DNA of 64,000 nucleotides from an uncultured Pseudomonadota bacterium (GCA_964568625.1 CAZMQG010000001.1:19393-83392), one strand, 5' to 3'; positions 5,811 to 63,749 are shown, numbered from the stretch's first letter. Numbers and translations are program-made. Notes: a model not told the origin generated them from the letters alone.

Positions 5811-5994
5811 AAACATATCCTTACAACAACTAAAATTAATAATATTTTTTAGAAGCTGAATTATGGTAGTCAAACGCATTAATGAAATGCAAGAAAATGT
5901 ATGTTTAGTTAGAAAATGAGATTTTTAAGGCTAATTTTAATATTTATTTAGCCCCGATTTCTTAACTTTAAAATAATTTTGATCCTATCTATAA

Positions 5995-8312: not shown

Positions 8313-9614
8313 ATGTTTCATGCGATTAAGCGCGCTCTGTGGGGCGACATTTCAGGAGAAGAGTTCAAACGGTTTGGACTATTATCTCTGACATTTTTGT
8401 TCATTATTGGTACATATTGGTTGATGAGACCTCTAAAAGACGGTCTTTTTATTAAGATTGTTGGCGCAAGCTACATTCCTTGGGCAAAAATTGCATCTTT
8501 CCTATTTATTGTTCCACTAATTTTGATCTACTCCAAGTTGGTTGACTTAGTCGCAAAACAAAAGCTCTTTTACATTATATGCACATTTTACGCATTACTA
8601 TTCTTTTTAATTTCATTTGCTCTAAGACACCCTACTATCGGACTTGCAAACACAGTTCCTGGTGCAGATAGACTTCTTGGTTGGATTATATATCTTTCAA
8701 TCGAAAGTTTTGGTTCTTTAGTAGTTGCGTTATTTTGGTCATTTGTTGCAAGTTCAACAGATACGTCATCTGCTAAAAAAGGTTATGCCCTAATTATTTC
8801 AGGCGCACAACTTGGTTCTATTGCCGGACCATTTTTGGCAAGTAATGCAAAAAGCTTTGGAATGCCTTTGTTAACAATTTTTGTTGCAATCGGAATCCTA
8901 ATTGTTCCTATGCTCATCAAATTGTTTATCACAGTTAACCCAAGCGCAGCTGAAGTAGCCCCTACTTCAACAGAAAAGAAAACCGGAATTATTGAAGGAT
9001 TAAAACTTCTTCTAACAAGACCATATTTGGCAGGTATTCTTGGCGTTGCAACATTGTACGAAATTATCGGAACAATCATCGACTATCAAATGAAGATGTC
9101 AGCTGAACAGGCTTTCCCTACCCCAGAAGCAATCACACAATTCCTTGGAAACTTTGGTATGGCTGCCAACAGCTTGGCACTTGTATTTGCATTAGTTGGA
9201 ACAAGCTTTTTCATCAGAAAGTTTGGGTTAACATTCTGCTTAGTTGCATTCCCAGTAACAATCGGAATCGTTGTTGGATGTGTATGGGCAATTCCAGGAA
9301 TCTGGGTATTGTTTGGAGCAATGGTTGCAATCAAGGGATTGAGCTATGCATTAAATAATCCATGCAAAGAAATTATGTACATCCCAACAAGTAAAGATGC
9401 TAAATTCAAAGCAAAAGGTTGGATTGATATGTTTGGTGGAAGATCCGCAAAAGCAGCCGGATCAGGCATCAACGCATTCTTTACAACTTTGTCAGAATTA
9501 ATGTTCTTCGGTTCAATCATCTCTCTTGGAATCGTAGGAATCTGGATTGTAGTTGCATTGTATGTCGGTAAGACAAACAAAAAACTTACAGAATCAGGTA
9601 CTATTATTAGCTAA
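8313..9614 (+). CDS. tlc: TLC-family nucleotide (ATP/ADP) transporter
   Basis: Polytopic membrane protein. The N-terminal region EEFKRFGLLSLTFLFIIGTYWLMRPLKDGLFIKIVGASYIPWAKIASFLFIVPLILIYSKLVD follows the TLC/NTT signature (F-x-Y-x-LR-x-KD ... G-A-E-x-IP-F-x-K ... Y-x-KL). At 433 aa it is shorter than canonical ~500-aa Tlc proteins. AAGGAG SD. Confidence 0.75.
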   Translation: MFHAIKRALWGDISGEEFKRFGLLSLTFLFIIGTYWLMRPLKDGLFIKIVGASYIPWAKIASFLFIVPLILIYSKLVDLVAKQKLFYIICTFYALLFFLISFALRHPTIGLANTVPGADRLLGWIIYLSIESFGSLVVALFWSFVASSTDTSSAKKGYALIISGAQLGSIAGPFLASNAKSFGMPLLTIFVAIGILIVPMLIKLFITVNPSAAEVAPTSTEKKTGIIEGLKLLLTRPYLAGILGVATLYEIIGTIIDYQMKMSAEQAFPTPEAITQFLGNFGMAANSLALVFALVGTSFFIRKFGLTFCLVAFPVTIGIVVGCVWAIPGIWVLFGAMVAIKGLSYALNNPCKEIMYIPTSKDAKFKAKGWIDMFGGRSAKAAGSGINAFFTTLSELMFFGSIISLGIVGIWIVVALYVGKTNKKLTESGTIIS

Positions 9615-39798: not shown

Positions 39799-41451
39799 AT
39801 GATTTCAGAGTTTTTGGTACTTTTACCCCCTTTAATCGTAATTTTAATGGCAACGTACACAAAAAATACCAGACTCTCATTAATTCTAGGAATATTTTCT
39901 GCCGCCCTTATTATTAATGATTTTTTAATCTGGGGAACATTAAAAACAATTTTTGATAATTTACTGAAAGCCATCGAATTTGACGGGTTAACAAGTTTAC
40001 AAACCATCTGGAGTTGTGAAAGAATATTTATACTGTTATTTCTTTTAATGCTGGGCATAATCATCTCGTTACTGGAACACTCGGGCAGTGCCTATGCTTA
40101 TGGAAATTACATAACAACAAAACTAAAATCTGTTAAAAATGCAGAATTATCTTCTCTGATACTTTCATTCTTTTTCTTCATAGACGATTACTTCAGCTGC
40201 TTAACCGTTGGATCCGTTATGCAACCAATAACAGACCAGTTCAAGATTCCACGAGTAAAACTGGCATTCTTGGTAAGTTCCGTAGCCGTTCCGCTTGCTA
40301 TAATATTCCCTCTTTCAAGCTGGGTTGCTTATATTTTGGGACAACTCGGGCAAACAGGCGTATCAACTTGTATGAACTCCTCAACGGTAATTCAATGCGA
40401 TCCATTCTTTTTATACTTAAATACAATTCCATTTTTGTTTTATGCATTAATTGTTGTTTTCTCAATATGGTTTATAGTTTTAAAACGCCTATCATTTGGG
40501 GTCGTTGCAAAACATGAACACATAGCTCAAACCACCGCAACTCTTTTTGGGGGAAAACAGGCATTAACAAGAAAAACACAAGAATCAATGCCCCCACGAG
40601 ATAACTGTACGCTGAAAAGCTGCACGCTTTGGGACTTTATCCTTCCAATTATTTTGCTAATAACTTCAACGATCATAGAAATTTTAAGAAGCGGGGACTT
40701 TTTTATATTTGGCGGATCAAACGGAATTATTCAAGCATTATTTCAGGCAAATATCCCTTCAGCCCTTTTTGAAAGCAGTGTATTTACAATAATTATCACA
40801 ACGGCCTATTTTATTATTAGAAAAAGAATTCAAATTAAAGATTTGGGAATGATTACCAGAGAAGGCATAAATTTGATGAAATCATCATTAATCCTTCTTA
40901 TTTTAATTTGGACATTCGGAAAAATTTTACAAAATGACCTAAAAATAGGAAGCTTCATTGCTCAGCACATTGGGTACATCAACATCAGCTATCTTCCTGT
41001 CATTTTATTTTTAATATCAGGTCTAGTTACCACACTCATGTGTTCTGCCTGGGGATCTATGGGCTTGATCATTCCAATTGGAATTCCAATGTTGGTCTCA
41101 CTTTCTAATGCACAAACGCCAATTATGCTAACTGAAATTCCTATGATTTATCCGGTCCTTGGGGCTATTATTTCAGGTGCCATCATTGGCAACCAACTAT
41201 CACCCGTGGCAGATGTCATGTTGATGGCAGCTACTAGTTCTGGATGTTACCACATGGATCTGGTTAAAGCTCAAGCAAGTTTGACAATCCCAAGCATATT
41301 TTCGGGTGCGTTGGCATTTTTATGTGCCGGGTTATTAATTCCAATATGTGGCGTTGCCATATCATTGGCAATATCTCTTTCACTTGGAATATTAAATAAC
41401 TTTGCAATTTTATATGTTCTAAATCTGCTTCAAAAAAGAAGAGGCTCCTAA
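39799..41451 (+). CDS. NhaC-family Na+/H+ antiporter-like transporter
   Basis: 550 aa with about 12 TM segments. N-terminus LLPPLIVILMATYTKNTRLSLILGIFSAALI, plus internal SAWGSMGLIIPIGIPM, typical of COG1757/NhaC-type carriers. Confidence 0.55.
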   Translation: MISEFLVLLPPLIVILMATYTKNTRLSLILGIFSAALIINDFLIWGTLKTIFDNLLKAIEFDGLTSLQTIWSCERIFILLFLLMLGIIISLLEHSGSAYAYGNYITTKLKSVKNAELSSLILSFFFFIDDYFSCLTVGSVMQPITDQFKIPRVKLAFLVSSVAVPLAIIFPLSSWVAYILGQLGQTGVSTCMNSSTVIQCDPFFLYLNTIPFLFYALIVVFSIWFIVLKRLSFGVVAKHEHIAQTTATLFGGKQALTRKTQESMPPRDNCTLKSCTLWDFILPIILLITSTIIEILRSGDFFIFGGSNGIIQALFQANIPSALFESSVFTIIITTAYFIIRKRIQIKDLGMITREGINLMKSSLILLILIWTFGKILQNDLKIGSFIAQHIGYINISYLPVILFLISGLVTTLMCSAWGSMGLIIPIGIPMLVSLSNAQTPIMLTEIPMIYPVLGAIISGAIIGNQLSPVADVMLMAATSSGCYHMDLVKAQASLTIPSIFSGALAFLCAGLLIPICGVAISLAISLSLGILNNFAILYVLNLLQKRRGS

Positions 41452-41465
41452 CATTCGGAGCCTCT
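41440..41465. terminator. bidirectional hairpin between convergent genes
   Basis: AGAGGCTCC (41440-41448) pairs with GGAGCCTCT (41457-41465), a 9-bp perfect stem spanning the nhaC-like stop codon. Confidence 0.5.
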
Positions 41466-41485: not shown

Positions 41486-44400
41486 CTATTTACTTAATGC
41501 GGTCAAATCAGTAGTAACGTCATTAATCATTGTTGTAAACGTTTTTCCACTGGCAACTAATTTTGATGTTACAAGAGTAGCATTTGCATACCAAGCTTTT
41601 AATGCTTCTAGTTTTGTCTTATCTGTCTTCGGTCTTGCATTGTGCAAATTAGTTAAAGCAGTCCAGAAACTGGTCTGAACTGTTGTATAAACTAAAGTCG
41701 AATTTGCAGCTACATTTGTAGCCACACTTGTTACCAAATTTTGTAGCACTAACAATTGTGCATCATAAGTTGAAGTTGTAACTGTAAAACTCTTTAATAT
41801 ACTGTTCACCCTTGATATCTCAATTGCCAATAAGTCTGCATTAATATCACTAATCATTGTTGTAAAATTTTTATCAGCGGCAACTAGTTTTGATGCCGAG
41901 AGAGTTGCATACCAATTGGTTAGGGTTTCATACCAGGACTTTAAAGTAGTTAATTTTGCTTTATCTGTTTTAGGCCTTGCATTATGCAAACTTGTTAATG
42001 CAGCCCAAAAGTTTGCTTGTTCAACTGTGTAGTCAAGCGTCTGATTTGCTTGAAAAGCTGATGCTACACTTGTTACCAAATTGGGCAAAATAGGCAACTG
42101 AGAATCATAAGTTGAAGTTGTAACTGTAAAAGTTTTTAATATATTATCAACTCTTGCCATCTCAGCAGCTGCTATCAAATTTGCAAAATCTGAATTGATG
42201 TCATTAATCATACTAGTAAAATTTTTATTAGCAGCAACTAACTTCGATGCTACTAATGTCGCATACCAAGTATTTAATGTTGTATACCAAGAAATTAAGG
42301 TCGTTAATTTAGTCTTATCCGTTTTAGGCCTTGCATTATGTAAACTTGTTAATGCGGTCCAAAAACTAGTTTGAACAGGTGAGTAATCAAGAGACTGATT
42401 CGCCTGAAAATTCGCAGCTATACTTGTTACCAAATTTGGTAATATCGATAACTGAGAATCATACGTCGAAGCTGTCACAGTAAAATTCTTTAATATACCG
42501 TTAACCCTTGCCATTTCAGCCGCTTGCACTAAAGACTGATCTATTTTTGTAAAATCCGAATTAATATCATTAATCATACTAGTGAAATTTTTACCAGAGG
42601 CAACTAACTTTGATGCAACTAGTGTCGCATACCAGGTATTTAACGTTGTATACCAAGTTTTTAAGGTAGTTAGTTTAGTCTTATCTGATACCGGCCTTGC
42701 GTTATGTAAACTTGTTAATGCGGTCCAAAAACTCGCCTGCACCGGAGTATAGTCAAGAGCCTGATTTGCTTGAAAGTTTCCTGCAATGCTTGCCACCAAA
42801 TTTGGCAGTATTGATAACTGAGAATCATAAGTTGAAGCTGTAACTGTAAAATTATTCAATATATTACTTACTCTTGCCATCTCTGCAGATTGAGCCAAAG
42901 CCTGATCTATCTTTTTAAAATCTGAATCAATATCACTAATCATTGTTGTAAAACTTTTATCAGCAGCAACTAATTTTGATGTTTTAAGAGTTGAGTCTGT
43001 ATACCAACTTTTTAGTGCTGCTAATTTTACCTTATCATTACTAGGTCTAATCTTATGCAAATTAGTTAAAGCCAACCAAAAACTCGGTTGATACTGTGTA
43101 TAATCATACACTGAACTAGCAGGCACACTTTTTGCCAAGTCTTGCAATGCCAATAATTGAGAATCATAACTTGAACTAGCCAAAAGAACATTTGTATTTG
43201 CAGGTGTAAAACTACTTAATATATTATTAACCCTTGTCATTTCAGCAATTTTTACAGCAGACGCTTTATTTGCAACTTCTATATCTGTTCCAAGCTGCAT
43301 TAACCAATTTGCTAAATCCGAATTTTGCGCAAAATTCAAAAAAGATTTATTCATTGCATTATTTATCAAAACTTTTAAATCAGCCAAAGTCGAAGATGTT
43401 CTATTATTATAAAAATTTTTAATTGCAGTATAAATTGAGTTACTAGAACTTGGATAATCCTGTAAAAACGTCTGATTAAACATACCTGTAGAAACACCAA
43501 CAACATTTGCATTCAACAATGCTGGCGTTCCTGATTTTGTTTTATCATTTAATATAGCAGTCAAAGCTGATTTTACTTCATCCACTAGTCTGCCACTCCA
43601 ACTTTTAAGATCAGATTTTTGGGATGAAGTCAAAAAAGCTTTAGATTGAGCATTGTTTAACAATAGCTGCACATCTCCTAATGGATAAAGATTCCTGTTG
43701 TTATAAAAATTTTGAATTATCGTATAAATCGAACGACTTGAGCTTGGATAATTCTGTAAATAAGACTGATTAAAGCTTGAAATTAAATTTATACTCAAAG
43801 AATCAGTCGTACTTGAAGCATCAACAACATTTGCATTCAATAAAGCAGGAGTTCCAGATTTTGTAGAATCATCTAAAATTGCCTTTAAAGAAACTTTTAC
43901 ATCATTTTGCACCTGCATTAAACAATTTTTAATATCATCCTTCTGTGATGAGGTTAAAAATGCTTTATCTTGAGCATTTTTCAATAAAATTTGTAAATCC
44001 CCATATGAGGATGATGTCCTATTATTATAGAAATTTTTAATTGCCGTATAAATAGAACTTCCCAAACTTGGATAATCTTGTAAATATGCCTGATTAAAAA
44101 CATCGTTAGATACTGAAACAATATTCGCATCCAATAAGGCTGGAGTACCAGATTTTGTAACATCTCCAAGGATTGCCACCAAGGATGATTTAACAGCTTC
44201 CGTTACAGCACTCGTTTGCTGAGAAACAGCCTGCACAGTAGTAGATATCGTAGATGGAACAACAACCGGTACGGCAGAAGTCAGCCGTGGCAATTGAGTT
44301 TGGGTTGTCGCAGCAACAATTTGAGTTGCAACCGGTTGAGCAACAGCCTGTACCTGTGATTGCTGAGTTTGTGTTTTAGCCTGTGCCTGTAATTGAGCCT

Positions 44401-45220
44401 GCAACTGCTGTGCTTGTAACTGCTGAGCTTGTAATTGAGCTTGCAGTTGTTGAGCTTGTAATTGAGCTTGCAGTTGTTGTGATTGTAGCTGTGCTTGCGC
44501 TTTTAACTGTTGAGCTTGCAATTGCTGAGCCTGTAATTGAGACTGAAGTTGCTGCGTTTGTAACTGAGACTGAGCATCTTGCCCCACTGAAGAAGTTATA
44601 GGGGTAGTTAACGGAACCGTTGATGATACACGTGTAGCATAAGCATCTGATGATAACCCCGAAGTTGTTGTAAGTCCTCCAGTAGAAACAACACCTGATG
44701 TAGGCGTAGTACCTGAACCTGATGTAGACACCAAATCTGACGTCGATCCCAAAATGGATTGCCCTGGAAGACTAGATCCAGTAGCAGATGAAGTTGAATC
44801 CGATAATAAATCTAAAAGCAATTGGTCTTGTGCTTGCGCCAAAGGTAACTTATCTGATAAAGATCCCGATTGTAATGACAAGTCTTGCGGAATTCCACTT
44901 GTAGGCAAAGATATTCCCGACGCTTGAGATTCTTTAGAAACTCCAACATCACCAGATGGCTCCAATAATTCTGATGACAAATCTTGAATAGAACTATCTT
45001 GAAAAGGCTCACCTTGTATAGTTAATTTTTGATTAGAATTTGTTGATTCCCCTGAACCGGCAATATCCCCAGATTGTTTTAATAAATCTAACGATAAATC
45101 TTGGGAAAAAAAATTCTGATCAGTATTTGAAGAATATACAGACTGATTTGTCGCCAAGTACATTCCTGTAACCATAATAAAGACCAGTATCGTTGACATC
45201 TCTATTGAATGCCACTTCAT
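41486..45220 (-). CDS. 1244-aa repeat-built surface/secreted protein (orphan)
   Basis: N-terminal hydrophobic anchor STILVFIMVTGMYLA. Short QDLS..LL..SGD repeats, an S/T/G-rich linker, a Q-rich (QLQAQ)n tract, then 3 + 5 long tandem repeats (see repeat features). Confidence 0.8.
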   Translation of the reverse strand: MKWHSIEMSTILVFIMVTGMYLATNQSVYSSNTDQNFFSQDLSLDLLKQSGDIAGSGESTNSNQKLTIQGEPFQDSSIQDLSSELLEPSGDVGVSKESQASGISLPTSGIPQDLSLQSGSLSDKLPLAQAQDQLLLDLLSDSTSSATGSSLPGQSILGSTSDLVSTSGSGTTPTSGVVSTGGLTTTSGLSSDAYATRVSSTVPLTTPITSSVGQDAQSQLQTQQLQSQLQAQQLQAQQLKAQAQLQSQQLQAQLQAQQLQAQLQAQQLQAQQLQAQLQAQAKTQTQQSQVQAVAQPVATQIVAATTQTQLPRLTSAVPVVVPSTISTTVQAVSQQTSAVTEAVKSSLVAILGDVTKSGTPALLDANIVSVSNDVFNQAYLQDYPSLGSSIYTAIKNFYNNRTSSSYGDLQILLKNAQDKAFLTSSQKDDIKNCLMQVQNDVKVSLKAILDDSTKSGTPALLNANVVDASSTTDSLSINLISSFNQSYLQNYPSSSRSIYTIIQNFYNNRNLYPLGDVQLLLNNAQSKAFLTSSQKSDLKSWSGRLVDEVKSALTAILNDKTKSGTPALLNANVVGVSTGMFNQTFLQDYPSSSNSIYTAIKNFYNNRTSSTLADLKVLINNAMNKSFLNFAQNSDLANWLMQLGTDIEVANKASAVKIAEMTRVNNILSSFTPANTNVLLASSSYDSQLLALQDLAKSVPASSVYDYTQYQPSFWLALTNLHKIRPSNDKVKLAALKSWYTDSTLKTSKLVAADKSFTTMISDIDSDFKKIDQALAQSAEMARVSNILNNFTVTASTYDSQLSILPNLVASIAGNFQANQALDYTPVQASFWTALTSLHNARPVSDKTKLTTLKTWYTTLNTWYATLVASKLVASGKNFTSMINDINSDFTKIDQSLVQAAEMARVNGILKNFTVTASTYDSQLSILPNLVTSIAANFQANQSLDYSPVQTSFWTALTSLHNARPKTDKTKLTTLISWYTTLNTWYATLVASKLVAANKNFTSMINDINSDFANLIAAAEMARVDNILKTFTVTTSTYDSQLPILPNLVTSVASAFQANQTLDYTVEQANFWAALTSLHNARPKTDKAKLTTLKSWYETLTNWYATLSASKLVAADKNFTTMISDINADLLAIEISRVNSILKSFTVTTSTYDAQLLVLQNLVTSVATNVAANSTLVYTTVQTSFWTALTNLHNARPKTDKTKLEALKAWYANATLVTSKLVASGKTFTTMINDVTTDLTALSK
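41489..43246 (-). repeat. five in-frame tandem repeats of 112-122 codons (family B)
   Basis: Units start on the minus strand at 43246, 42886, 42520, 42166 and 41824 (anchor AEM(A/T)RV / IEISRV). Consensus AEMARVNxILKNFTVTASTYDSQLSILPNLVTSIAxNFQANQxLDYxPVQxSFWTALTSLHNARPKTDKTKLTTLKxWYTTLNTWYATLVASKLVAxxKNFTSMINDINSDF. The three middle copies are also highly similar at DNA level. Confidence 0.9.
43250..44200 (-). repeat. three in-frame tandem repeats of ~98-108 codons (family A)
   Basis: Anchor KSGTPALL(D/N)AN(I/V)V at about 44156, 43863 and 43538. Shared FNQ.YLQ(D/N)YPS...SIYT.I(K/Q)NFYNNR...L...L(K/N)NA..K(A/S)FL(T/N).(S/A)Q(K/N).D(I/L). Confidence 0.85.
44340..44590 (-). repeat. Gln-rich low-complexity tract incl. 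a perfect 27-nt tandem duplication (44425-44451 / 44452-44478)
   Basis: Encodes QSQLQTQQLQSQLQAQQLQAQQLKAQAQLQSQQLQAQLQAQQLQAQLQAQQLQAQQLQAQLQAQAKTQTQQSQ. The plus strand shows GAGCTTGTAATTGAGCTTGCAGTTGTT twice in a row. Confidence 0.9.
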
Positions 45221-45272
45221 TACAATTCTCCCTTCCTTCTAAACTATCCCAACTGCTAAATCTTCAGATCAA

Positions 45273-46835
45273 TTATTTATCTAAAAAATGAAGTTTAATA
45301 CCAAATTGTTTTTTCGTAAAAAATGCAAACAACATAACAGCCGCACCTAATCCAAACACAATAAACCAATATCCAATTCCAATATTGAAAAAGCTAGACC
45401 AAGATGAGCCTTCCACCATCCATAATATTAGGAAATATCCAGTTAAAAAAAGTACAATCGAAATAGTAAGCTGAGCCAAATATCGAACTAAAAAATTAAA
45501 ATAATTCCCGTAATAAAATGTAAACCCATGCTTTTTATGCAAAAAGTAAAAACATAAAACTGTCATCATTATACCGGACAAACTGCAAGCTCCGGCAATT
45601 CCATATGCACCAAATAACAGAATACCAGACAAATCGCCCAAAAGATTCACCACGGCAGAAACTGCTGAAGATATTGTTGTTGAAGTGGTATCTTTCATAG
45701 CATAAAAAATGCTAAGTAATGACCTGTTCAAACAGAAAAAGAAAAGACCTATTAGATAAATTACCAAAATCCATGCCCCTTGAAATGCAAGAGAAGGATC
45801 TTTAACTTTTGTTAACATCACATTTTCAAATAGATGTTTAGAAATAAACATTAAAAAGAGTGATACGGGAATAATAACCCATGAAACAAATTTAGTAACC
45901 TCGAGAATATAAAAATTTAGGCGCTTTGGGGCATAAAGAACTACTCGCGAAAAATGCGATAACATAATACTTGAAAATGCCACAGCAAAAACACCTAATG
46001 GAATATTCATAAATCGACTACCAAAATAAAGTAGAGTCACTGAGCCCTTAGGTAAAAATGATGCAATTGCAAAACTTATAAATAAATTGAATTCAACAAT
46101 GCTAACGCCAAAAAGACATGGTAAAAATTTACCCAAAACACTCTTAAATAATTTTTTGACACTATCAGTCACATGGCCAAATGTGAATCCATATTTAAAA
46201 TAAAACAAAATATTCATCAATAACCAAAAAAAACCACCCACGATTATTCCAAAACAAACAACGTTAGCCGATGTTTGAAAATACAAAGCAACAAGTAATC
46301 CAGCTATATAAAACATATTCCATAAAGCTGGCCCAAATGCAGGAACAGCAAAACAATTTACTGCATTAAGCGCACCTGCAAATAATGTGCTGCTCGAAAC
46401 TAATAACAAAAATGGAAATAAAATTCGTAAAAAAGGAACTGCATAATTTATCTGCTCTTGTGAAAATCCGGGAGCAATCATTCTAATAACAAATTCTGTT
46501 TTAAAAAAAATAAATGCATACATTAAAAGAATTATGCCTTCAAAAAACAGAAATGATATTGTCATTAACCCGCTTGCTTCTTGTTTATTTTCGTCCTTAA
46601 CACTTTTTACAAATGCAGGAACAAATGAAGCACTCATTGCACCTTCTGCAAAAACATGCCGAAAAAAGTTTGGCAAACGAAAGGACATAATAAAAGCATC
46701 TGACATTGCCCCAACGCCAAAAAATCTGGCAATCAAAAATTCTCTAAATATTCCAAGAAATCGACTTATAAGTGTCATACTCCCTGCTTGGGCTGTTTTT
46801 TTTAAAATATCACGCTTATTCAGTGAAAGACTCAT
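45273..46835 (-). CDS. murJ: lipid II flippase MurJ/MviN
   Basis: GSMTLISRFLGIFREFLIARFFGVGAMSDAFIMSFRLPNFFRHVFAEGAMSASFVPAF is the canonical MurJ N-terminus. About 14 TM segments. Confidence 0.85.
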   Translation of the reverse strand: MSLSLNKRDILKKTAQAGSMTLISRFLGIFREFLIARFFGVGAMSDAFIMSFRLPNFFRHVFAEGAMSASFVPAFVKSVKDENKQEASGLMTISFLFFEGIILLMYAFIFFKTEFVIRMIAPGFSQEQINYAVPFLRILFPFLLLVSSSTLFAGALNAVNCFAVPAFGPALWNMFYIAGLLVALYFQTSANVVCFGIIVGGFFWLLMNILFYFKYGFTFGHVTDSVKKLFKSVLGKFLPCLFGVSIVEFNLFISFAIASFLPKGSVTLLYFGSRFMNIPLGVFAVAFSSIMLSHFSRVVLYAPKRLNFYILEVTKFVSWVIIPVSLFLMFISKHLFENVMLTKVKDPSLAFQGAWILVIYLIGLFFFCLNRSLLSIFYAMKDTTSTTISSAVSAVVNLLGDLSGILLFGAYGIAGACSLSGIMMTVLCFYFLHKKHGFTFYYGNYFNFLVRYLAQLTISIVLFLTGYFLILWMVEGSSWSSFFNIGIGYWFIVFGLGAAVMLFAFFTKKQFGIKLHFLDK

Positions 46836-46868: not shown

Positions 46869-47555
46869 TTATTTTACAAGTAACCCATCATGTAATGTAT
46901 ACACAACTTCCATCTTAGTATAAACATCAGGATCATGCGAACAGATTATTACACCCATTCCCCATTCCTCTTTTGCCCTTAAAATTAAATTAACAACATT
47001 TTTAGCATTATCAGAATCCAAATTTCCTGTTGGCTCATCTGCAAGCAAAAATGAAGGTTTATTAAAAATTGCTCTGGAAATTGATACCCTTTGCTGTTCT
47101 CCACCGGAAAGTTGCCCCGGATAACTGTTCTCTTTTCCAGATAAGCCCATATTTTGCAATAACTCAAATGCTCTAGCACGACATTTTGTATTATTTTCAC
47201 CTTTGACCAAACCAACCAACATAATATTCTCAAGTACTGTTAACTCTTTGATTAGGTAATGGAACTGAAACACAAACCCCATTGTTTTATTTAAAAATTT
47301 CTCTTTTTCCGATTGTTTTAGTTTATAAATATCTTTTCCATTAAAAGTTACAGTACCTTCGCTTGGTTCATCAAGTCCACCTAAAATGTGCATGAACGTA
47401 GACTTCCCGCTTCCAGAAACCCCCTTAATTGCATAAGCAGTTCCCTTACAAAACTCTACGGATACGCCCTTCAAAACATGACTAATTTTATCGGCTTCCC
47501 CAAAATCTTTGTAAATATTATTTGAAATCAATCGATCGGCAAATTGCCCAATCAT
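46869..47555 (-). CDS. ABC transporter ATP-binding protein, LolD/MacB/FtsE-like
   Basis: Start trimmed to ATG 47555 (TGGAGA SD; the ORF-track start is a TTG inside that SD). Walker A GVSGSGKST, signature LSGGEQQRVSISRA, Walker B FLLADEPTGNLD. No permease gene is adjacent. Confidence 0.8.
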   Translation of the reverse strand: MIGQFADRLISNNIYKDFGEADKISHVLKGVSVEFCKGTAYAIKGVSGSGKSTFMHILGGLDEPSEGTVTFNGKDIYKLKQSEKEKFLNKTMGFVFQFHYLIKELTVLENIMLVGLVKGENNTKCRARAFELLQNMGLSGKENSYPGQLSGGEQQRVSISRAIFNKPSFLLADEPTGNLDSDNAKNVVNLILRAKEEWGMGVIICSHDPDVYTKMEVVYTLHDGLLVK

Positions 47556-47731
47556 TTTATTCTCCAAAAAATAATTTCACTTTTTTTTAACTTCTTAATC
47601 ATTATTACCCCATTAAAATACGATATTCTTTTAAATATTACCAATTCTGTTGCATTATCCAAAGCAATTTCTTTAAAATTCAATTTAGAACAGGGGCAAA
47701 TTTAGGACATATCAAAGGGGGAGGGGGAGTA

Positions 47732-52820: not shown

Positions 52821-53504
52821 ATGATTTCAACAAAGCTCAGAGTTAAAGAGTATCTAAGAGAACGTCGTTGGACAACAAAAGTCCTGGCTGAAAAAACCGG
52901 GATGTCCGAAAGTTATCTAACTCATATAAAAAATGGAACACGTCGCTGGAATGAAGATGCACTTAAAAAATTAGCTGAAGCTTTCGAAGTTGAGGCAACA
53001 GATCTTTTTGAAACATCAAACCAAAGTCGCAAAGATCTTCCAATAAACATTCAAATTCCAGACGAAATTAAAAATCAACTTTCAAATTACACTCTAAAAT
53101 TAAAAATCGTTCCTGTGGTAGGCCAAATTCCGGCTCAACCATCAGCTTACAATAATCAGCTGATCCAAGTATCATCCGGATACAAAGATCAATTTGTAAC
53201 AGTACTTGATAGCGATGATGAAAACATGTTCTGCTTATCAGTTGACGATAACAACATGGCACCTAATTTCGTAAAAGGTGACTTACTAGTTGTTTCTCCA
53301 TCCACATGGACAAATTCCGGCGACATAGTTGCTGTTGAATATGGAACAGAAACACCTGTTAGAGCCATCATGCAAGTAAACTTTATGGACGACCTGGTTG
53401 TCCTTGAAGCAGTTAACCATAAAAAAGCTCCAATTGCTCTCTCAAGAGGCAAGGATCAATTCAGAATTATTGGAAAAGTAATTCACAGATTCCAAAAAAT
53501 ATAA
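52821..53504 (+). CDS. XRE-HTH + S24 (LexA/CI)-like repressor with apparently substituted catalytic dyad
   Basis: HTH WTTKVLAEKTGMSESYLTHIKNGTRRWNEDALKKLAEAF. C-terminal S24-like fold VPVVGQIPAQP...FCLSVDDNNMAPNFVKGDLLVVSP...GDIVAVEY...PVRAIMQV...IIGKVI. By-eye alignment with E. coli LexA puts Asn145 (53253..53255) at Ser119 and Arg at Lys156. Confidence 0.6.
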   Translation: MISTKLRVKEYLRERRWTTKVLAEKTGMSESYLTHIKNGTRRWNEDALKKLAEAFEVEATDLFETSNQSRKDLPINIQIPDEIKNQLSNYTLKLKIVPVVGQIPAQPSAYNNQLIQVSSGYKDQFVTVLDSDDENMFCLSVDDNNMAPNFVKGDLLVVSPSTWTNSGDIVAVEYGTETPVRAIMQVNFMDDLVVLEAVNHKKAPIALSRGKDQFRIIGKVIHRFQKI

Positions 53505-53595: not shown

Positions 53596-54369
53596 ATGAA
53601 AAATATAAGAATTTTATTCCTGGCTACATTGACTGCAGGGCTCACCATTACAAATACATTTGCAATGGATGCAAGAGCAGCTACAAGCCATACTGAAAGC
53701 TCCACAAGACAAGATCTACAAATCCAATCAAGCCTATCTGTACTGCCAGATGAATTAATAGTAAAAATTTTAGCAGATTCCATAGAAGACGACTTTATAA
53801 AATGCACAGATCAAAGTATGCTACTCAAAAAAATAAATATTGCTATTACGGAATTAAAACAATTAAGACTTGTAAATCACGAATTTGCAAATTTTTTAAC
53901 AAATGAAACAATCATCTATATCTTAAGAGTTGCAAATCTAGCCGCATATGCAAACCAAATTAATCCTGACACAGGAGAAGCCTTATTGCACATGGCCATA
54001 CGCAGAGGTAAGTATATGTTAGCAAAAATTTTAATCAAAACAGGAGCAGATGTTAACAAACAACTCATAACCCCAAGAGACCCCAAAATTACCCGACAAT
54101 TCCCTGTTGGAACAACTCCTCTTCATACTGCAATAAAGGCGGGTAATCTCAGCATCGTGGAATTATTGGTTCACTATGGTGCCAATATTACTGCAACAAT
54201 CACTAAATACGAGCAGATCTTTACCCCTTTGGATATAGCAAGAAATAATGGAGATGATAATATCATTCACATCCTTGAAAATGCTTATACAACAAAAGGC
54301 ATTGCTATCCCTGCTACCGATGAGATAGAAAATGACCCTGTTTTTATAAATGCACCTCAGCATAACTAA
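53596..54369 (+). CDS. F-box + ankyrin-repeat protein with signal peptide (AnkB-like eukaryote-mimic)
   Basis: AGGAGG SD. Signal peptide MKNIRILFLATLTAGLTITNTFA. F-box LSVLPDELIVKILADS...LKQLRLVNHEFANFL (53731..~53895). ANK repeats GEALLHMAIRRGKYMLAKILIKTGADVN, GTTPLHTAIKAGNLSIVELLVHYGANI, FTPLDIARNNGDDNIIHILENA. Confidence 0.8.
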   Translation: MKNIRILFLATLTAGLTITNTFAMDARAATSHTESSTRQDLQIQSSLSVLPDELIVKILADSIEDDFIKCTDQSMLLKKINIAITELKQLRLVNHEFANFLTNETIIYILRVANLAAYANQINPDTGEALLHMAIRRGKYMLAKILIKTGADVNKQLITPRDPKITRQFPVGTTPLHTAIKAGNLSIVELLVHYGANITATITKYEQIFTPLDIARNNGDDNIIHILENAYTTKGIAIPATDEIENDPVFINAPQHN

Positions 54370-57613: not shown

Positions 57614-60600
57614 ATGAGAAAAAACTTGATTGCGATAAGTATCCTGATGTTTTTAACTCAAATACTAATCGCAAAAAATGGTAGCATCGAACATAATCTA
57701 GTTCGCTCAATCTCAACAGAATCACTAGGAGTTGATGTAAACACATCAGCATATTCCGGTCCAGACCAATTTTATATTGTAACTAATGCAAATGAAGACA
57801 AATCACTTTCTCGCATTGCAATGGCAAGGGGAGACGACGGAAATTGGACTGCAGTATTTATGCCTATGGCCCCAGCCACCGGCGATGTAACCATTAACTT
57901 GCAAAATGAGCAAGACAGTCCATTAAATGCAAAAGACATTACTAAACTTGTAATTGGATCAGATACATTTGCATATAAACGCCCCGTCGTTGGCCTAGTT
58001 GAAGGTGAAGACCCTGATCAAAAAGTACTTTTATTTCAAGTAACTGATACAAACGAAGGCAAGATTATTTTAAAAACATCAAGCATGGATAACTTAACTG
58101 AATATGCTTTAAAAGATACCAGCACATATAACGCCAAAGGACTTCACGCACTTGCTGCAACACAAAATTTAGAAAAAATTTTAGGAACTCCTCTGATCTT
58201 TGCACTTGTTTCTGACAGTGCAAATTTAAACGAAGCAACGCCTGAAAATATTGGTATTGTTCCTGTAATAGTTAAAGCATCTTATTCCGGGCTAAACCCA
58301 CTTGATGCAACAAATTTTGATAAATCCGGACAAAATAATAAAGCAATATCCATAATAAGTGCGCTAAAAATAACAACCAATCCAACGTTTTTGGAAAATT
58401 CCACCGTAGATATGTTTTGGGATGACACGCTACAAAGATTATTCATCGCTACATCAAAAATACAAACAGGCGCAGGAAACAGTGATGGAGCCATAGCTCT
58501 TCTGGTTGGAAATATTAAAAGCGAAACTACAAAAAAAGGAACAATCCAAAGCTTACAAATACAAAAATGCGCTAATATTTTAGATGCAAATTGGCCGTCG
58601 GGAAACGCCAACAAAAATTGGATTGTCGGGTATAAAAACGATACAACAACAACAGATACAAAAGAGCAAATTATAAATCTTCACAAAGTGCGCACAATGC
58701 ATACAAGCACAGGCAAAGATTACGTTATCCTAAATGGAGAGGTTGCGAAGGGAACAGACAGTACTCTTACCAGCAGCACAGTATGCGAAGTGTATGCGCT
58801 ACCGGTGATGCCTAGCACCAGCACAGACGCCGGAAAATTGGCAACAGTAAATGATGATGGAACGTTTGCCGTAATAACCCAGGGAAGTGAGCTACTCAGA
58901 AATACAGATACTCAAGCCGTAGTTGGCGTAAATCCTCAATATATTGTTCACACTAATACTGATGCTGCATTTGATAACGCCAAAATAATGGATATGCAAA
59001 TTTCAGGTGATACCGTCTACATTTCAGTAACCGGATCAAGAAGTAATGCCGGCGAAGATACTGCAGGCGAAGCCGGAATATTCGCATCAACTGCTATTTT
59101 TAATGAGAAAAGAGTAATTCGTGCTTGGACTCCATGGCAAAGAGTTATGGGATATACGGATAAAGTTTTTGGACTTGGTTTTGATATAGGTTCAAATAAT
59201 TTTTGGTACATTGGACCTGATCAACAAACAGGTAAAATAACAATTTGGAGCTCAGGAGATACAAGTGAAACTGGAATTCACGAAGGCAGCCCACTCTGCA
59301 CCGCTCTAAGTAGTTTTTTTAAGAAAGATGAGCTTGGTGTTGTAAATCTATTCAATTTTGACGATGAAACTCCCGGTTTTAAAACATGGAAACCTGAATC
59401 TTCATATCCGGCTTTTTCAATGATGGTTGCACTCGGGCTTGGAAAAGTTGCTTTAATTGAAACAGGAAAAAGATCAAACACAACTAATAATAAATCACCG
59501 TTTGAACCAACAAAAAAATTTGAAGCCAATCTTGTAGGAAACTCAACATCCCCCGCAACAGAAACAACCAACGTTTTTGTTTTTAATGATACGGTAACTC
59601 AAGCATTAGGATTTATAACATCAGCTGAAGTTGCTCGCATTAAAACCTCACTGCTTAATGCTACAAAACTAAAACAAAATACATATACCGAAGGTGGTTG
59701 GTTATTTATTGGAGGACAAAATGGAGTTGCAGTCCTACGCAAAAGTAATGGCGCAGGATGGAACACCACATCAGGACTTAATAAATTAAGCAACACTGAT
59801 TTTCCCGGCAAGGGATACTCTTTTCTAAAGCTAACACCTCCATCTGAATATAGCTTTTCAAACATTCGCAAACTAATCTCTGATGGAAAGTATCTTTATA
59901 TTTTGACCCGATCGGATTTATACAGGCTAGAAATGAACGCCAATGATTTTACAGACTATGTAACAATAAATTCCACGCGAATAAAGCTACTTGCAAGCAT
60001 AAATAACACATTTCAAAATGACAGTAACACCCAAGTCATGAACAAATATATTGATGAATTATTTGATATCGTTTTAGTTGACAATACTGACAATGCAAAA
60101 AAACTTGCTATCGCAACGACTCAAGGCGTTTGGGTATCAAACACAATAGAAGACGAATTTGCAGTAGACGATATTAAATGGAACAAAAACATCAGTAGAA
60201 CAGGCAGAGAAGAAATATATCTCGGCCCATCATTAAAATTTGATTTTTTACCGGTCAAACGAGGCGGCACAACCACAGATTCTAACGGGATAAACACTAT
60301 CGACGGCAACCTGTACGTAACTGCAATTGATTATAAATTTGCAGAGTTGGTCGTTTGTCGGTTTAATGTGCAAAACGGAGCAGTGACAATGTTCGACGAG
60401 CCTTATATTGCTGGAGGGGTTTATGGATACTCGGTTCCATACTTCTATAGATTAGCAGATTTAGGCGAAATATTTAGGGGAACCCAATTCGGACCGCTCG
60501 ATCACGTTGGACGAAAAGGTCAACTCTCTGAAAGTATAGGCGTAACTCCCGATCCAAGTAGTTTTTTACCTACAACAGAAGATGATCTAACATATTATAA

Positions 60601-60718
60601 AGCCATTGATCTTGACATGGATCCTCAAGCGGCTTTACATCTTTTTTCAATTATACAAAATACAGCATCCGGAGCTCTTTATATCCCCGGAGAATTTAAC
60701 GTTTTTGTAAATGAATAA
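57614..60718 (+). CDS. 1034-aa secreted orphan protein, paralog 1 of a tandem pair (beta-rich, propeller-like motifs)
   Basis: AAGGAG SD. Signal peptide MRKNLIAISILMFLTQILIA. Shares collinear motif blocks with the next gene (VRTMHTSTG, AWTPWQRVMG..KVFG, FSMMVA.G..K.ALI.T, NVFVF, GWLF.GG.NGVAVL.K..G.GW, FPG.GYSF.KLTP, SFSN.RKL, C-terminal PG(E/D)(F/W)...VNE). Confidence 0.8.
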   Translation: MRKNLIAISILMFLTQILIAKNGSIEHNLVRSISTESLGVDVNTSAYSGPDQFYIVTNANEDKSLSRIAMARGDDGNWTAVFMPMAPATGDVTINLQNEQDSPLNAKDITKLVIGSDTFAYKRPVVGLVEGEDPDQKVLLFQVTDTNEGKIILKTSSMDNLTEYALKDTSTYNAKGLHALAATQNLEKILGTPLIFALVSDSANLNEATPENIGIVPVIVKASYSGLNPLDATNFDKSGQNNKAISIISALKITTNPTFLENSTVDMFWDDTLQRLFIATSKIQTGAGNSDGAIALLVGNIKSETTKKGTIQSLQIQKCANILDANWPSGNANKNWIVGYKNDTTTTDTKEQIINLHKVRTMHTSTGKDYVILNGEVAKGTDSTLTSSTVCEVYALPVMPSTSTDAGKLATVNDDGTFAVITQGSELLRNTDTQAVVGVNPQYIVHTNTDAAFDNAKIMDMQISGDTVYISVTGSRSNAGEDTAGEAGIFASTAIFNEKRVIRAWTPWQRVMGYTDKVFGLGFDIGSNNFWYIGPDQQTGKITIWSSGDTSETGIHEGSPLCTALSSFFKKDELGVVNLFNFDDETPGFKTWKPESSYPAFSMMVALGLGKVALIETGKRSNTTNNKSPFEPTKKFEANLVGNSTSPATETTNVFVFNDTVTQALGFITSAEVARIKTSLLNATKLKQNTYTEGGWLFIGGQNGVAVLRKSNGAGWNTTSGLNKLSNTDFPGKGYSFLKLTPPSEYSFSNIRKLISDGKYLYILTRSDLYRLEMNANDFTDYVTINSTRIKLLASINNTFQNDSNTQVMNKYIDELFDIVLVDNTDNAKKLAIATTQGVWVSNTIEDEFAVDDIKWNKNISRTGREEIYLGPSLKFDFLPVKRGGTTTDSNGINTIDGNLYVTAIDYKFAELVVCRFNVQNGAVTMFDEPYIAGGVYGYSVPYFYRLADLGEIFRGTQFGPLDHVGRKGQLSESIGVTPDPSSFLPTTEDDLTYYKAIDLDMDPQAALHLFSIIQNTASGALYIPGEFNVFVNE

Positions 60719-60740
60719 ACAAACAATAAAAAGGAAACTC

Positions 60741-63700
60741 ATGAAAAATAAGAAATCGCCATTTTATTTGCCAATATTTTTAACAACAATTGCATGCTGG
60801 AATGCACAACTTTTTTCGTCTGTAGAAAATTTCGTACCTAACAGTGCAGTGGTACAAACATCACCAAGTAGACTGACATTTGAAAAAACCGTTTTTGACA
60901 ATTCAAATCTTAATTTTTTCTTAGGCGCAGCAAAGGATGCAACATATACCGCCACTACGGCAAAGGCATATGCCGTTACACGTGCACACGAGACATCAAT
61001 TTTTGGAATTACTCCGGAAAAAATTTGGGCTCCTAAAGAAGATGGTAGTGGATCCGAAGAAGTTGAAAACAAACTTTATGGAGCAAGGATCTTAAATCTC
61101 GGTTTATTCAATAATAGCTATCCAATTGTATCTTATCGACAAGACTCTGGCTATCTAGATGATTCTAATATTCTTTATTTAATAAGCTCATACCTTGATG
61201 GGAAAACAAATATAGCTACTGAAGCGGCATTACAAGATTCAACACCTGGCGATACAAAACAAATTAAGGCGTTAACAGGATCTAACACTTATGTTTTTGC
61301 CGCAGTATCTGCATCAGGAAAAGACTGGAACGATCCATCCGATGACGGAGATGCACGAGGAATAGCCGTTGTAAAACCTACCTTAAATGTAAAAATTCCA
61401 ACAATAAAGCAACTCGCCGCCGAAGATTTAAGCAATAGTGAACCTACGGAAACAAAGGCAAAAAAGGTAGATGTAAAAGTAACAGCTAATCCTATAGTTG
61501 TTAGCTTTACTGAGGCCGCAGCTCCAAGCGCTATTACAAAAGCTTATATCGGTTCTGATGTTGACATGTACTGGGACAGTGAACTAGGAAGACTCTTCGT
61601 TGGATTATCTGAAGTACACCGTAATGATCAAAACAAAGAAGGCGGTTGTTTTAGCATTTTGGTAGGAAGAATCGAAAAAGAGAACATCGGTACGTCATCT
61701 GAAAAAGATCATACTTTAACTTTCTCTTCAATTGTATCTTCACCAACAAAAGCCAAGCTTTATAACGACACTACGTACAAAAATTCAAATAAATTTATGG
61801 TTGGATTTTATTACGATACTACAGGAACAGATGATGTAACAATTACAGCAAAAAAAGTACGTGTAATGCATACAAGCACCGGATTTTCTTATTTGATTGC
61901 AAATTGCAATCTATCCGGCGATAGTGAATATAATAAAGTTTTTGCTCTTCCAATTTTGGGAAACAAAAGACCTGATGGCACAACAATTACCGATAGAGGA
62001 ATAATTGGAACTTTATCTAAAATAGATGACTCTACTCATCTTCCAACATTTGATGCCATTCCAACAGAAGCAAAGTATATGCCACAGTTTGACAAAGATA
62101 ATCCAACTAACCCAAGCAAAACAACTATCGGCCTTGTCGTTGGACAAGCAGAAAAAGACACTGGACGATTAAAAGACCTATTTGTATCCGGTGATTCTGT
62201 TTTTATTTGTTTAAGTGATGATGGTTCTACTCAAAACTCCGGAATATTCGAAAGTACTGCTCTGTTCAACTCTGACGGAATTATTATTGCATGGACACCT
62301 TGGCAAAGGGTCATGGGGGATGTACAAAAAGTTTTTGGCGGCGGTGTAGATGTATTCAATAATTTTTGCTTCCTTACCTCACAAGACACCGCAAAAACAG
62401 ATGCAAATACCATAAGAACATCGATATGGGGAACCACGGAAACAGCTAACAAATCCGAAACAATAGATAAAGAGAATGACAAACCTGTTTGGACCAACGA
62501 CACAAGCAGAAACTTATCGGCTCTTCTTTCAAGCATTTTTCCACAAGAACAGTGTGGCGTACTGCAAACCATAAATTTTGATGAATATACTCCAGGGTTT
62601 AAACAACAGAAGTTTTCGATGATGGTTGCAGTTGGATATGATAAAATTGCACTAATTCAGACGCTCGATCCAATAACACAAAATCCAATAAAAACATTTA
62701 CAACTGATGGAGCAACCCCAAATGTTTTTGTATTTCAAAATGATCCGGTACTCAAAGAAATCGCGCCACTTTGCTTTGCAGAAGTTGCAAAAAATACTGA
62801 TGCCGATTCCGGCTGGCTTTTTGTCGGAGGATACAACGGCGTCGCTGTTTTATGCAAGGCAGATGGATCCGGGTGGGATTCAAGTGGGGACGGACTTATA
62901 AATCTTGATACAGCAGCTTTTCCAGGAAACGGATATTCTTTCAAAAAATTAACTCCAAGCACCCCAAATGCCGTTAGCTTTAGCAATGTTAGAAAGCTTG
63001 CAAGCATGGCAAGCTCTGATGCAAAAAAATTATTTATACAGACAAAAGATAACCTGTACTCAATAGTTCCATCAGCCGCAGAATTCAAAACGGCAACAGT
63101 AACTGCAACACCAATGCTTACAGATCTTCCAGAAACTTTAAAATTCACAGATTTTTTAATAATTCCAAATGCTGACCCAGCGGATGATGGTACACTTCCT
63201 ACTTCAAATAATTTTAAGTTTATTTTTGGCTCGACGTATGGATTATTAACAGGCATATACAACTCAGCTACCGCAAAGGTAACCTTGAGTGGGCAAGGCA
63301 GCGCAACAAGTGATCCTGTTTTACACCTCAACTACATATCAAAAACAAAAGGGCTCAACAGCGTAACAGGAAATTTGTACGCCTTATCGGCAAACTATCT
63401 GACAAACTCCGGTAAAATTTACAGATATTATGTTAATGGAGCAGAGAGTTCTGCTGCTAATGCATGCAAGCCAATTTCTGTCGATGCAAACCCATTCATC
63501 GATCTTCACAATTTCCGCGGTAATTTTATAACAGACGGAGCGTTTGGGTTTAGCATGATAGCAAAAGGCCCTTCAAATAATTTCTTGACTGATCTTTATG
63601 AAATCGCACAAACTCAAACAGAACACGGATCGATTGATGAGTTACTTGAATTGAATGACACAAACTGGTATATAGGAGTAATAACTCGTAACACAGCCTC

Positions 63701-63749
63701 CGGATCGTGGTTAATCCCAGGAGATTGGGGTATAAAAGTTAACGAGTAA
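60741..63749 (+). CDS. 1002-aa secreted orphan protein, paralog 2 of the tandem pair
   Basis: Start trimmed to ATG 60741 (AAGGA SD): MKNKKSPFYLPIFLTTIACWNAQLFS. Motif blocks as listed for 57614..60718. Confidence 0.8.
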   Translation: MKNKKSPFYLPIFLTTIACWNAQLFSSVENFVPNSAVVQTSPSRLTFEKTVFDNSNLNFFLGAAKDATYTATTAKAYAVTRAHETSIFGITPEKIWAPKEDGSGSEEVENKLYGARILNLGLFNNSYPIVSYRQDSGYLDDSNILYLISSYLDGKTNIATEAALQDSTPGDTKQIKALTGSNTYVFAAVSASGKDWNDPSDDGDARGIAVVKPTLNVKIPTIKQLAAEDLSNSEPTETKAKKVDVKVTANPIVVSFTEAAAPSAITKAYIGSDVDMYWDSELGRLFVGLSEVHRNDQNKEGGCFSILVGRIEKENIGTSSEKDHTLTFSSIVSSPTKAKLYNDTTYKNSNKFMVGFYYDTTGTDDVTITAKKVRVMHTSTGFSYLIANCNLSGDSEYNKVFALPILGNKRPDGTTITDRGIIGTLSKIDDSTHLPTFDAIPTEAKYMPQFDKDNPTNPSKTTIGLVVGQAEKDTGRLKDLFVSGDSVFICLSDDGSTQNSGIFESTALFNSDGIIIAWTPWQRVMGDVQKVFGGGVDVFNNFCFLTSQDTAKTDANTIRTSIWGTTETANKSETIDKENDKPVWTNDTSRNLSALLSSIFPQEQCGVLQTINFDEYTPGFKQQKFSMMVAVGYDKIALIQTLDPITQNPIKTFTTDGATPNVFVFQNDPVLKEIAPLCFAEVAKNTDADSGWLFVGGYNGVAVLCKADGSGWDSSGDGLINLDTAAFPGNGYSFKKLTPSTPNAVSFSNVRKLASMASSDAKKLFIQTKDNLYSIVPSAAEFKTATVTATPMLTDLPETLKFTDFLIIPNADPADDGTLPTSNNFKFIFGSTYGLLTGIYNSATAKVTLSGQGSATSDPVLHLNYISKTKGLNSVTGNLYALSANYLTNSGKIYRYYVNGAESSAANACKPISVDANPFIDLHNFRGNFITDGAFGFSMIAKGPSNNFLTDLYEIAQTQTEHGSIDELLELNDTNWYIGVITRNTASGSWLIPGDWGIKVNE

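Follow-up and report, generated by a model that had tools for sequence, protein, structure and literature searches.

Exported rods built from tandem helical bundles are a known kind of protein. In the staphylococcal giant adhesins Ebh and Embp, a long helix shared between adjacent bundles links them into a rigid rod, and six 125-amino-acid (aa) repeats of Embp span 34.8 nm, or ~5.8 nm per repeat (PMC7587433). In Periscope proteins, a class of length-variable, rod-like surface proteins, the tandem repeats by definition have a very high DNA identity to one another (PMC9704523). The Dependentiae (Babeliales) are widespread obligate parasites of protists whose surface and host-contact machinery is hardly known and whose genomes hold many exported ORFans; signal peptides occur on 44% of the coding sequences of Chromulinavorax and on a large share of ORFans in Dependentiae (PMC6561590). 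Here, we analyze a gene at positions 41486..45220 on the minus strand of a 64,000-nucleotide (nt) stretch of DNA from an uncultured bacterium (GCA_964568625.1 CAZMQG010000001.1:19393-83392; the whole stretch is called the window). The gene encodes a 1244-aa protein with eight tandem, predicted all-helical units, and neither the domain that these units represent nor its distribution or domain partners have been described.

The open reading frame (ORF) begins with ATG and is a complete coding sequence whose stop codon lies at 41486-41488 in the ORF list. An identical protein (P0001) is present in NCBI on a 153-kb contig, and two relatives, P0002 (locus L001) and P0003, have ~80% protein identity. 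The order of elements given by the original prediction, made from the DNA alone, was borne out: a signal segment, QDLS motifs, a serine/threonine-rich linker, a (QLQAQ)n tract, three A units, and five B units. All of these lie on the minus strand. The A units occupy aa 341-438 (A1, 43907..44200), aa 439-546 (A2, 43583..43906, with a 10-aa loop insertion), and aa 547-644 (A3, 43289..43582, the unit that was modelled singly). Beyond an A-to-B junction at aa 645-658 (43247..43288), the B units occupy aa 659-778 (B1, 42887..43246), aa 779-900 (B2, 42521..42886), aa 901-1018 (B3, 42167..42520), aa 1019-1132 (B4, 41825..42166), and aa 1133-1244 (B5, 41489..41824), the last of which reaches the C terminus without an anchor or tail domain. 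Boundaries were placed by alignment and profile matches, and the per-unit E-values of the hidden Markov model (HMM) range from 1e-25 to 1e-53 across all eight units, well above what chance would give. At the protein level, A units are 59 to 62% identical in pairwise comparisons and B units are 56 to 83% identical. Tandem Repeats Finder (TRF) reported an array with a period of 366, in which B2 lies (3.2 copies; score, 1230).

The two sets of units align in one register at 22 to 34% identity and have a common motif, DY(P/T)..S(I/F)(Y/W).A(I/L).N(F/L)(Y/H)N.R, followed by an L..L...K.F(L/T) helix. When alignments of only A and only B units were compared profile to profile (hhalign), they matched over 47 columns at identical positions (P = 0.0014). 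The B-only HMM weakly matches unit A1 (independent E-value, 0.006) and also matches units of the giant protein P0017 (independent E-value, 3e-5), which are matched by A-type profiles as well. The order of predicted helices is the same in A and B, with one extra short helix in B. Together, A and B appear to be homologous, and the protein is therefore probably, though not certainly, made of eight copies of one ~100- to 120-aa domain, with A and B as divergent subfamilies.

That the repeats are helical, as originally proposed, agrees with structure prediction. AlphaFold2, run on unit A3 with the 44-unit family alignment, returned an all-alpha, six-helix bundle with a predicted local distance difference test score (pLDDT) of 96.5 and a predicted template modelling score (pTM) of 0.89. 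A model of aa 335-1244 (910 aa) has a pLDDT of 83.8, and in it helices of 24 to 40 residues cross all seven unit boundaries; the A-to-B junction, for example, falls within a predicted continuous helix of 40 residues (H296-335 of that model). These models suggest that the array is probably a stiff rod, and by analogy with the dimensions of Embp repeats, eight units might extend ~30 to 40 nm. A Foldseek search of the unit model found nothing in the PDB with an E-value below 1 (best template modelling score [TM], 0.53) and nothing among the BFVD viral models below an E-value of 0.47. The same search with the 910-aa model returned generic matches to HEAT/TPR solenoids in the PDB, which were judged meaningless (TM of ≤0.15; root mean square deviation of >23 Å).

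The window derives from a bacterium of the Babeliales (TM6/Dependentiae), an obligate intracellular parasite of protists: the MurJ protein encoded in the window clusters at ≥90% with proteins named Candidatus Babeliales bacterium or candidate division TM6, P0002 and P0022 carry names of the same kind, and the closest named homologue of the 1244-aa protein comes from a Babeliales metagenome-assembled genome (MAG). The G+C content of the window is 30 to 39%. A TLC ATP/ADP transporter, a hallmark of energy parasitism, is encoded at 8313-9614 on the plus strand.

To define the family, a profile of 44 units (alignment A1) was searched against 1.84 billion representative proteins at an E-value of ≤1e-3. 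The family is small, with 69 proteins (clusters) among these representatives, and its core, (Y/F)LQ(N/D)YP..S(I/F)(Y/W).A(I/L).N(F/L)(Y/H)N.R ... L..LL ... K.FLT..Q, is matched by all eight units of the window protein (E-values, 1e-25 to 1e-38). The smallest members have a single unit, and the largest are giants of 2.4 to 2.9 thousand aa with 13 to 21 matched stretches. Searches with orthologue patterns recovered four loci in 185,579 species genomes and none among the IMG/VR viral contigs, and a link to giant viruses is therefore unsupported. All members that can be named belong to TM6/Babeliales or to MAGs labelled "bacterium," and the contig of one giant (P0025, L007) resembles TM6 in its EF-Ts and shows a housekeeping context of reduced-genome type. 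Most members lie on metagenome contigs without a name, so that a restriction of the family to this phylum is not proven. An N terminus that resembles a signal peptide, basic and then hydrophobic, is present in 50 of the 72 family proteins that start with methionine.

In several paralogues, the units are combined with beta-rich domains of lectin type. P0044 has a Tectonin domain (44.2 bits, against a cutoff of 30); P0010, P0012, P0013, and P0022 have Methyltransf_FA (FAMeT)-type beta domains (35 to 41 bits, against 24.2); and P0022 additionally has a MIR-like domain (24.7 bits, against 23). The last of these proteins, which is encoded in the same MAG as P0002 (L006 1027-4314, plus strand; 1088 aa), has a signal peptide and brings together a MIR-like beta-trefoil, a Tectonin-like region, a Methyltransf_FA-type domain, and both A and B units. 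Short basic C-terminal tails were seen in P0012, P0013, P0022, P0043, P0044, P0045, P0018, P0049, P0054, P0059, P0063, and P0065, with endings such as ..LRAKRASL(L/P), ..KKQRGAKK, ..KTKRKKKRTKKGATK, and ..RGRGRGR; tails of this kind might serve as C-terminal signals for sorting or anchoring. No basic tail is present in the window protein, which ends in ..DLTALSK.

The original prediction assigned the repeats to no known family, and this held. Among Pfam families, only DUF5848 (PF19166) scored above its cutoff on the whole protein (31.3 bits, against a gathering cutoff of 26.9; E-value, 2.2e-7), and this score adds up matches in five repeats to a ~21-residue stretch, at positions 27-48 of the 64-position profile. 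Individually, none of these matches reaches significance, the best covering only positions 28-48, and when units were scored singly, B5 alone gave a match (16.9 bits; E-value, 0.007), whereas B1 to B4 and A3 gave nothing. The same family is precomputed for P0002, P0003, P0005, and P0006 and is labelled "faint" in the precomputed tables; membership in DUF5848 is thus unproven. An NCBIfam scan of the 1244-aa protein returned nothing, and literature searches found no papers on DUF5848/PF19166 or on Dependentiae and tectonin. The sole PDB sequence matched by the unit profile was lymphostatin (LifA/Efa1), over a 47-residue helical stretch (E-value, 0.027); its per-domain E-value is 2.2, and the match was taken as chance.

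A putative signal peptide at aa 1-27 (45140..45220) consists of MKWHSIEMS, the hydrophobic TILVFIMVTGMYLA, and TNQS, with the hydrophobic segment (aa 9-23) following a short charged stretch. In the window protein, the site predicted for cleavage is not a textbook AxA; sites of cleavage type are more evident in orthologues (for example, ...FVLA/QVSS in the more distant P0006). Cleavage of the signal peptide is likely. An acidic, low-complexity region rich in serine, threonine, and glycine, recognized by composition and a motif scan, follows at aa 28-213 (44582..45139) and is presumed to be disordered; its ratio of nonsynonymous to synonymous substitution rates (dN/dS) against the L001 orthologue is 0.36. 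The two to three QDLS copies proposed for it were confirmed: QDLS itself occurs at aa 40, 79, and 112, and there are two full copies of QDLSx(D/E)LL(K/E)xSGD, namely, QDLSxDLLKQSGD at aa 40-52 (45065-45103) and QDLSSELLEPSGD at aa 79-91 (44948-44986), along with degenerate copies and the related QDQLLLDLLSDS at aa 131-142 (44795-44830). These motifs are kept in P0002, P0003, P0006, and the orthologue at locus L004, while the sequence around them diverges.

Between this region and the array lie two further segments. The (QLQAQ)n tract, 82 aa of glutamine, alanine, and leucine at aa 214-295 (44336..44581), emerged from repeat and composition analysis; it is helix-prone and lineage-specific, a spacer rich in proline, alanine, and threonine standing in its place in P0006, and its leucines are spaced 4 to 6 residues apart rather than in heptads. 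Its protein sequence is 84% conserved relative to the L001 orthologue despite a synonymous divergence (dS) of 1.3 (dN/dS, 0.07), and the tract is therefore constrained and not a drifting low-complexity spacer. The linker at aa 296-340 (44201..44335), rich in threonine, valine, alanine, and glutamine, is the least conserved segment of the protein, at 49% identity to the orthologue. The protein as a whole is 13% serine, 12% leucine, 11% threonine, 10% alanine, 8% glutamine, and 7% asparagine, with a single cysteine and 1.4% each of glutamate and arginine. A composition rich in serine, threonine, asparagine, and glutamine and poor in cysteine and charge is typical of extracellular bacterial proteins.

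These features are best accommodated, with moderate confidence, by an exported, rod-like fibre or spacer that acts at the bacterial surface or in host contact and is either surface-bound or released. An elongated, all-alpha modular protein would be exported by the Sec route; its signal peptide would be followed by ~310 aa of flexible, acidic, serine-, threonine-, and glutamine-rich sequence with three conserved short motifs that resemble acidic dileucines; and the last helix of each unit would continue unbroken as the first of the following unit, yielding a fairly stiff rod. The rod would sit on or leave the cell surface and contact the host, be it the host cell surface, a phagosome, or a vacuole, and in paralogues the same units would serve as stalks for lectin-type heads. 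A fibrous surface or host-contact protein was also the original proposal, and it survives as the most economical reading because of the signal peptide, the cysteine-poor composition rich in serine, threonine, asparagine, glutamine, and alanine, the helices that run between units, and the lectin-type paralogues. The role itself, like export beyond the inner membrane and the length of the rod, is something that we infer rather than demonstrate, and the fold and the continuous helices are predicted.

Several observations weigh against an exported rod of this kind. The signal peptide was called by a hydrophobicity scan, and its cleavage is putative. The 910-aa model has a pTM of 0.36 and rests on an alignment of 10 sequences, which leaves the relative orientation of the units uncertain and, with it, how stiff and how long the rod would be. 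The 1244-aa protein shows no anchor for the outer membrane, no partner in a secretion system, no cell-wall motif, and no sorting tail at its C terminus; it also has no lectin-type head, so that the argument for host contact leans on its paralogues. Finally, the conserved position of the gene behind murJ and lolD fits an envelope role equally well.

A broader version of the surface reading can be framed, which we offer as a speculative and rather unlikely extension. The helical unit would be a Dependentiae-specific building block of exported "helical-string" fibres, from 8 units in the window protein to ~20 in giants of 2.9 thousand aa, that, with paralogues bearing eukaryote-type lectin heads (tectonin, MIR-like, and FAMeT-like beta domains), would form an apparatus for attachment to or uptake by protists, and the dileucine-containing motifs would provide a second host-directed site.

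The conserved motifs of the N-terminal region also lend themselves to a different explanation, in which the protein is an effector secreted into the host cell or vacuole, by a route like that of a type II secretion system or by outer-membrane vesicles, where acidic (D/E)LL-type motifs would recruit host factors in the manner of eukaryotic short linear motifs and the array would act as a scaffold. The QDLSxELLEPSGD motifs are conserved out to orthologues of ~60% identity while their flanks diverge, and the window and related contigs carry genes of host-mimic type (ankyrin, RING, UCH, and F-box/LRR-like). Many putative effectors with signal peptides are encoded by Babeliales genomes, and vesicles bud from these bacteria inside the host (PMC6561590). 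The motifs, however, misfit the canonical [DE]xxxL[LI], DxxLL, and clathrin-box patterns, and their assignment as acidic-dileucine or clathrin-box signals was dropped because their spacing is wrong for such signals. There is, moreover, no Pfam or structural link to eukaryotic interaction domains, and the low-charge composition rich in serine, threonine, and asparagine and the rod layout are a better fit to a structural extracellular protein. We know of no translocation signal in such a protein, and we consider an effector role doubtful.

Gene order favors a third explanation, a periplasmic or envelope scaffold tied to MurJ and LolD that would be held by an uncleaved N-terminal helix, with its flexible region and rod within or across the periplasm, and would serve, like TolA or LpoB, as a spacer that helps to organize cell wall or lipoprotein biogenesis in a reduced envelope. 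Genes for a LolD-like ABC ATPase (46869-47567) and for MurJ (45273-46835), both assigned by NCBIfam, lie upstream on the same, minus strand, and the gene for the 1244-aa protein follows directly after a 52-nt gap. This gap contains a purine-rich, Shine-Dalgarno-like ribosome-binding site, GAAGGAAGGGAG (45228..45239, minus strand; read from the sequence), 8 nt before the start codon. Since neither a promoter-like nor a terminator-like site was detected in the gap, co-transcription with lolD-murJ is likely. Twenty-one nucleotides past the stop codon, the gene has a terminator-like hairpin of its own (41430..41465, minus strand), with a 9-bp stem that includes six GC pairs followed by the T-run TCTTTTTT; the hairpin overlaps the 3' end of a Na+/H+ antiporter gene that is convergent with the 1244-aa gene. 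The three genes probably form an operon.

The order Lon / lolD-murJ-X / Na+/H+ antiporter, where X is the gene for the 1244-aa protein or its orthologue, is found in four genomes, namely, the window, L001 (P0002), L002 (P0008), and L004, and is kept even at L002, whose orthologue is 40 to 46% identical. At L004 (5049-8755, plus strand; MAG MFD01231.bin.2.11), the orthologue is split into three overlapping ORFs of 343, 474, and 461 aa with synteny intact, which reflects either frameshifts introduced by misassembly or decay into a pseudogene. Small genomes of this kind generally keep synteny, however, and a shared function need not follow from it. The lack of a textbook AxA would suit an uncleaved anchor in the window protein, but the signal peptides of orthologues are of clear cleavage type. 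Paralogues with tectonin, MIR-like, and FAMeT-type domains, as well as giants of 2.9 thousand aa, make little sense in the periplasm, and a rod of ~30 to 40 nm with 300 disordered residues would exceed the usual periplasmic width. A scaffold of this sort is accordingly a possibility that we rate as improbable, and the surface or host-contact rod remains the preferred reading.

The middle B units had also been described as highly similar at the DNA level, and from this a recent expansion or concerted evolution and a potentially variable copy number were proposed, features that would make the protein one of Periscope type. The similarity was not borne out in those terms, and the interpretation was not supported. 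Matches in the period-366 array amount to 77%, and the closest pair of units, B2 and B3, are 83% identical in protein and 79.7% identical in nucleotide sequence, with a dN of 0.10, a dS of 1.1, and a dN/dS of 0.09. All remaining pairs are 66 to 75% identical in nucleotide sequence (67 to 75% among B pairs), with dS values of 0.7 to 1.7, and no exact DNA word longer than 32 nt is common to two units. Every one of the eight units is nearest to the unit at the same position in P0002 or P0003 (76 to 88%) and not to its neighbors within the protein (58 to 83%). Against the P0002 gene, dS is 0.70 to 0.77 in the repeats and 0.70 in the B region, so that the divergence between orthologues (~0.7 to 0.8) lies below that between even the closest units (~1.1).

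Since same-position units are closest and between-genome dS is below within-array dS, these comparisons indicate that the array of three A and five B units predates the split of the lineages, and dN/dS values of 0.16 for the whole gene and 0.12 to 0.13 in the repeats, relative to the L001 orthologue, indicate that it is kept by purifying selection. The same 3A+5B count is found in three separate assemblies (P0001, P0002, and P0003), and the number of B units differs only among distant orthologues, with five in P0001 to P0003, four in P0006, and one in P0007 to P0009. In P0006, three A and four B units are followed by a C-terminal, Methyltransf_FA-like beta domain in place of the fifth B unit, and in P0007 to P0009, three A units and one B unit are followed by a different tail. 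The B units of the window protein and those of P0006 cannot be paired one to one, from which it appears that amplification of B units did occur at some earlier time in the lineage. Both this mismatch and the variation in B number speak for a copy-variable array, but the low maximum identity, the short common words, the positional orthology, and the order of the dS values largely refute a recent and ongoing process, which we regard as very unlikely. Similarity between repeats at the protein level, here as high as 83%, is compatible with saturated synonymous sites, and tandem repeats noticed in a scan therefore call for a check of dS and positional orthology before they are taken to be recent or unstable.

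That the ORF is an assembly artefact or nonfunctional, as might be suspected from a metagenome-type assembly and the split orthologue at L004, is so improbable as to be effectively excluded, given the same architecture in three separate assemblies, repeats too divergent for an assembler to collapse or expand, strong purifying selection, and the presence of a ribosome-binding site and a terminator.

The remainder of the window contains many ORFans, and a search with the unit profile found the helical unit in no other ORF of the window. Two adjacent and slightly overlapping ORFans at 57614-60718 and 60711-63749 (both on the plus strand) encode proteins of ~1000 aa each with signal-peptide-like N termini and compositions rich in threonine, serine, asparagine, and glycine; both have a C-terminal NTASG..(I/Y)PG(E/D)(F/W)...VNE and no Pfam match, and the two could be paralogues that reside at the surface or in the outer membrane. 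On the minus strand, an ORFan of 1256 aa (537-4307) has a signal-peptide-like N terminus, no Pfam or NCBIfam match, and no helical unit, and one of 508 aa (4353-5879), also without a Pfam match, ends in ...LSVQIKLNF with the terminal aromatic residue typical of outer-membrane beta-barrel proteins. An ankyrin-repeat protein (53596-54369) and a repressor with a LexA-like helix-turn-helix and an S24 peptidase domain (52821-53504) are encoded on the plus strand.

This analysis defines, with unit boundaries and a profile, an undescribed and confidently foldable helical domain that recurs as a lineage-restricted module in many large exported proteins. Studies of structure and binding can start from defined constructs, namely, one unit, a unit pair, and the B array.

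Among known systems, the layout of Ebh and Embp comes closest: in these proteins, as in the window protein, an export signal and an unstructured region precede two consecutive families of all-helical repeats, which in Ebh/Embp are ~100 to 170 aa long. For the window protein, helices across all seven unit boundaries are predicted, in a model with a pTM of 0.36, and these would join adjacent bundles in a similar way. The two differ in that the window protein has no FIVAR or GA match in Pfam and no fold match in the PDB, Ebh/Embp entries included (none at an E-value below 1; TM of ≤0.53), and in that its unit has five to six predicted helices, whereas that of Ebh/Embp comprises two three-helix bundles. 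The organism that encodes the window protein is of Gram-negative type, and the array has 8 units and no C-terminal anchor, as opposed to ~50 units in Ebh/Embp.

Features of trimeric or classical autotransporter adhesins and of two-partner secretion (TPS) adhesins are absent, in that no Pfam or NCBIfam match to a C-terminal beta-barrel, a YadA anchor, or an N-terminal TPS domain was found in the protein, and the neighbors are murJ, lolD, and the antiporter, with no TpsB. Spectrin offers a further parallel, since its repeats and the window units are ~100 to 120 aa long and all-alpha and, as modelled here, the last helix of one unit runs into the first of the next. Spectrin repeats, however, are three-helix bundles (~106 aa) of the eukaryotic cytoskeleton, whereas the window unit has six predicted helices in a protein with a putative signal peptide, and neither a Pfam match to PF00435 nor a structural match to spectrin was obtained. 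Periscope proteins resemble the window protein as exported, monomeric tandem arrays of independently folding domains with a predicted rod shape, but in the window array nucleotide identity reaches at most 79.7%, the closest units have a dS of ~1.1, and the repeat number is constant in P0001, P0002, and P0003.

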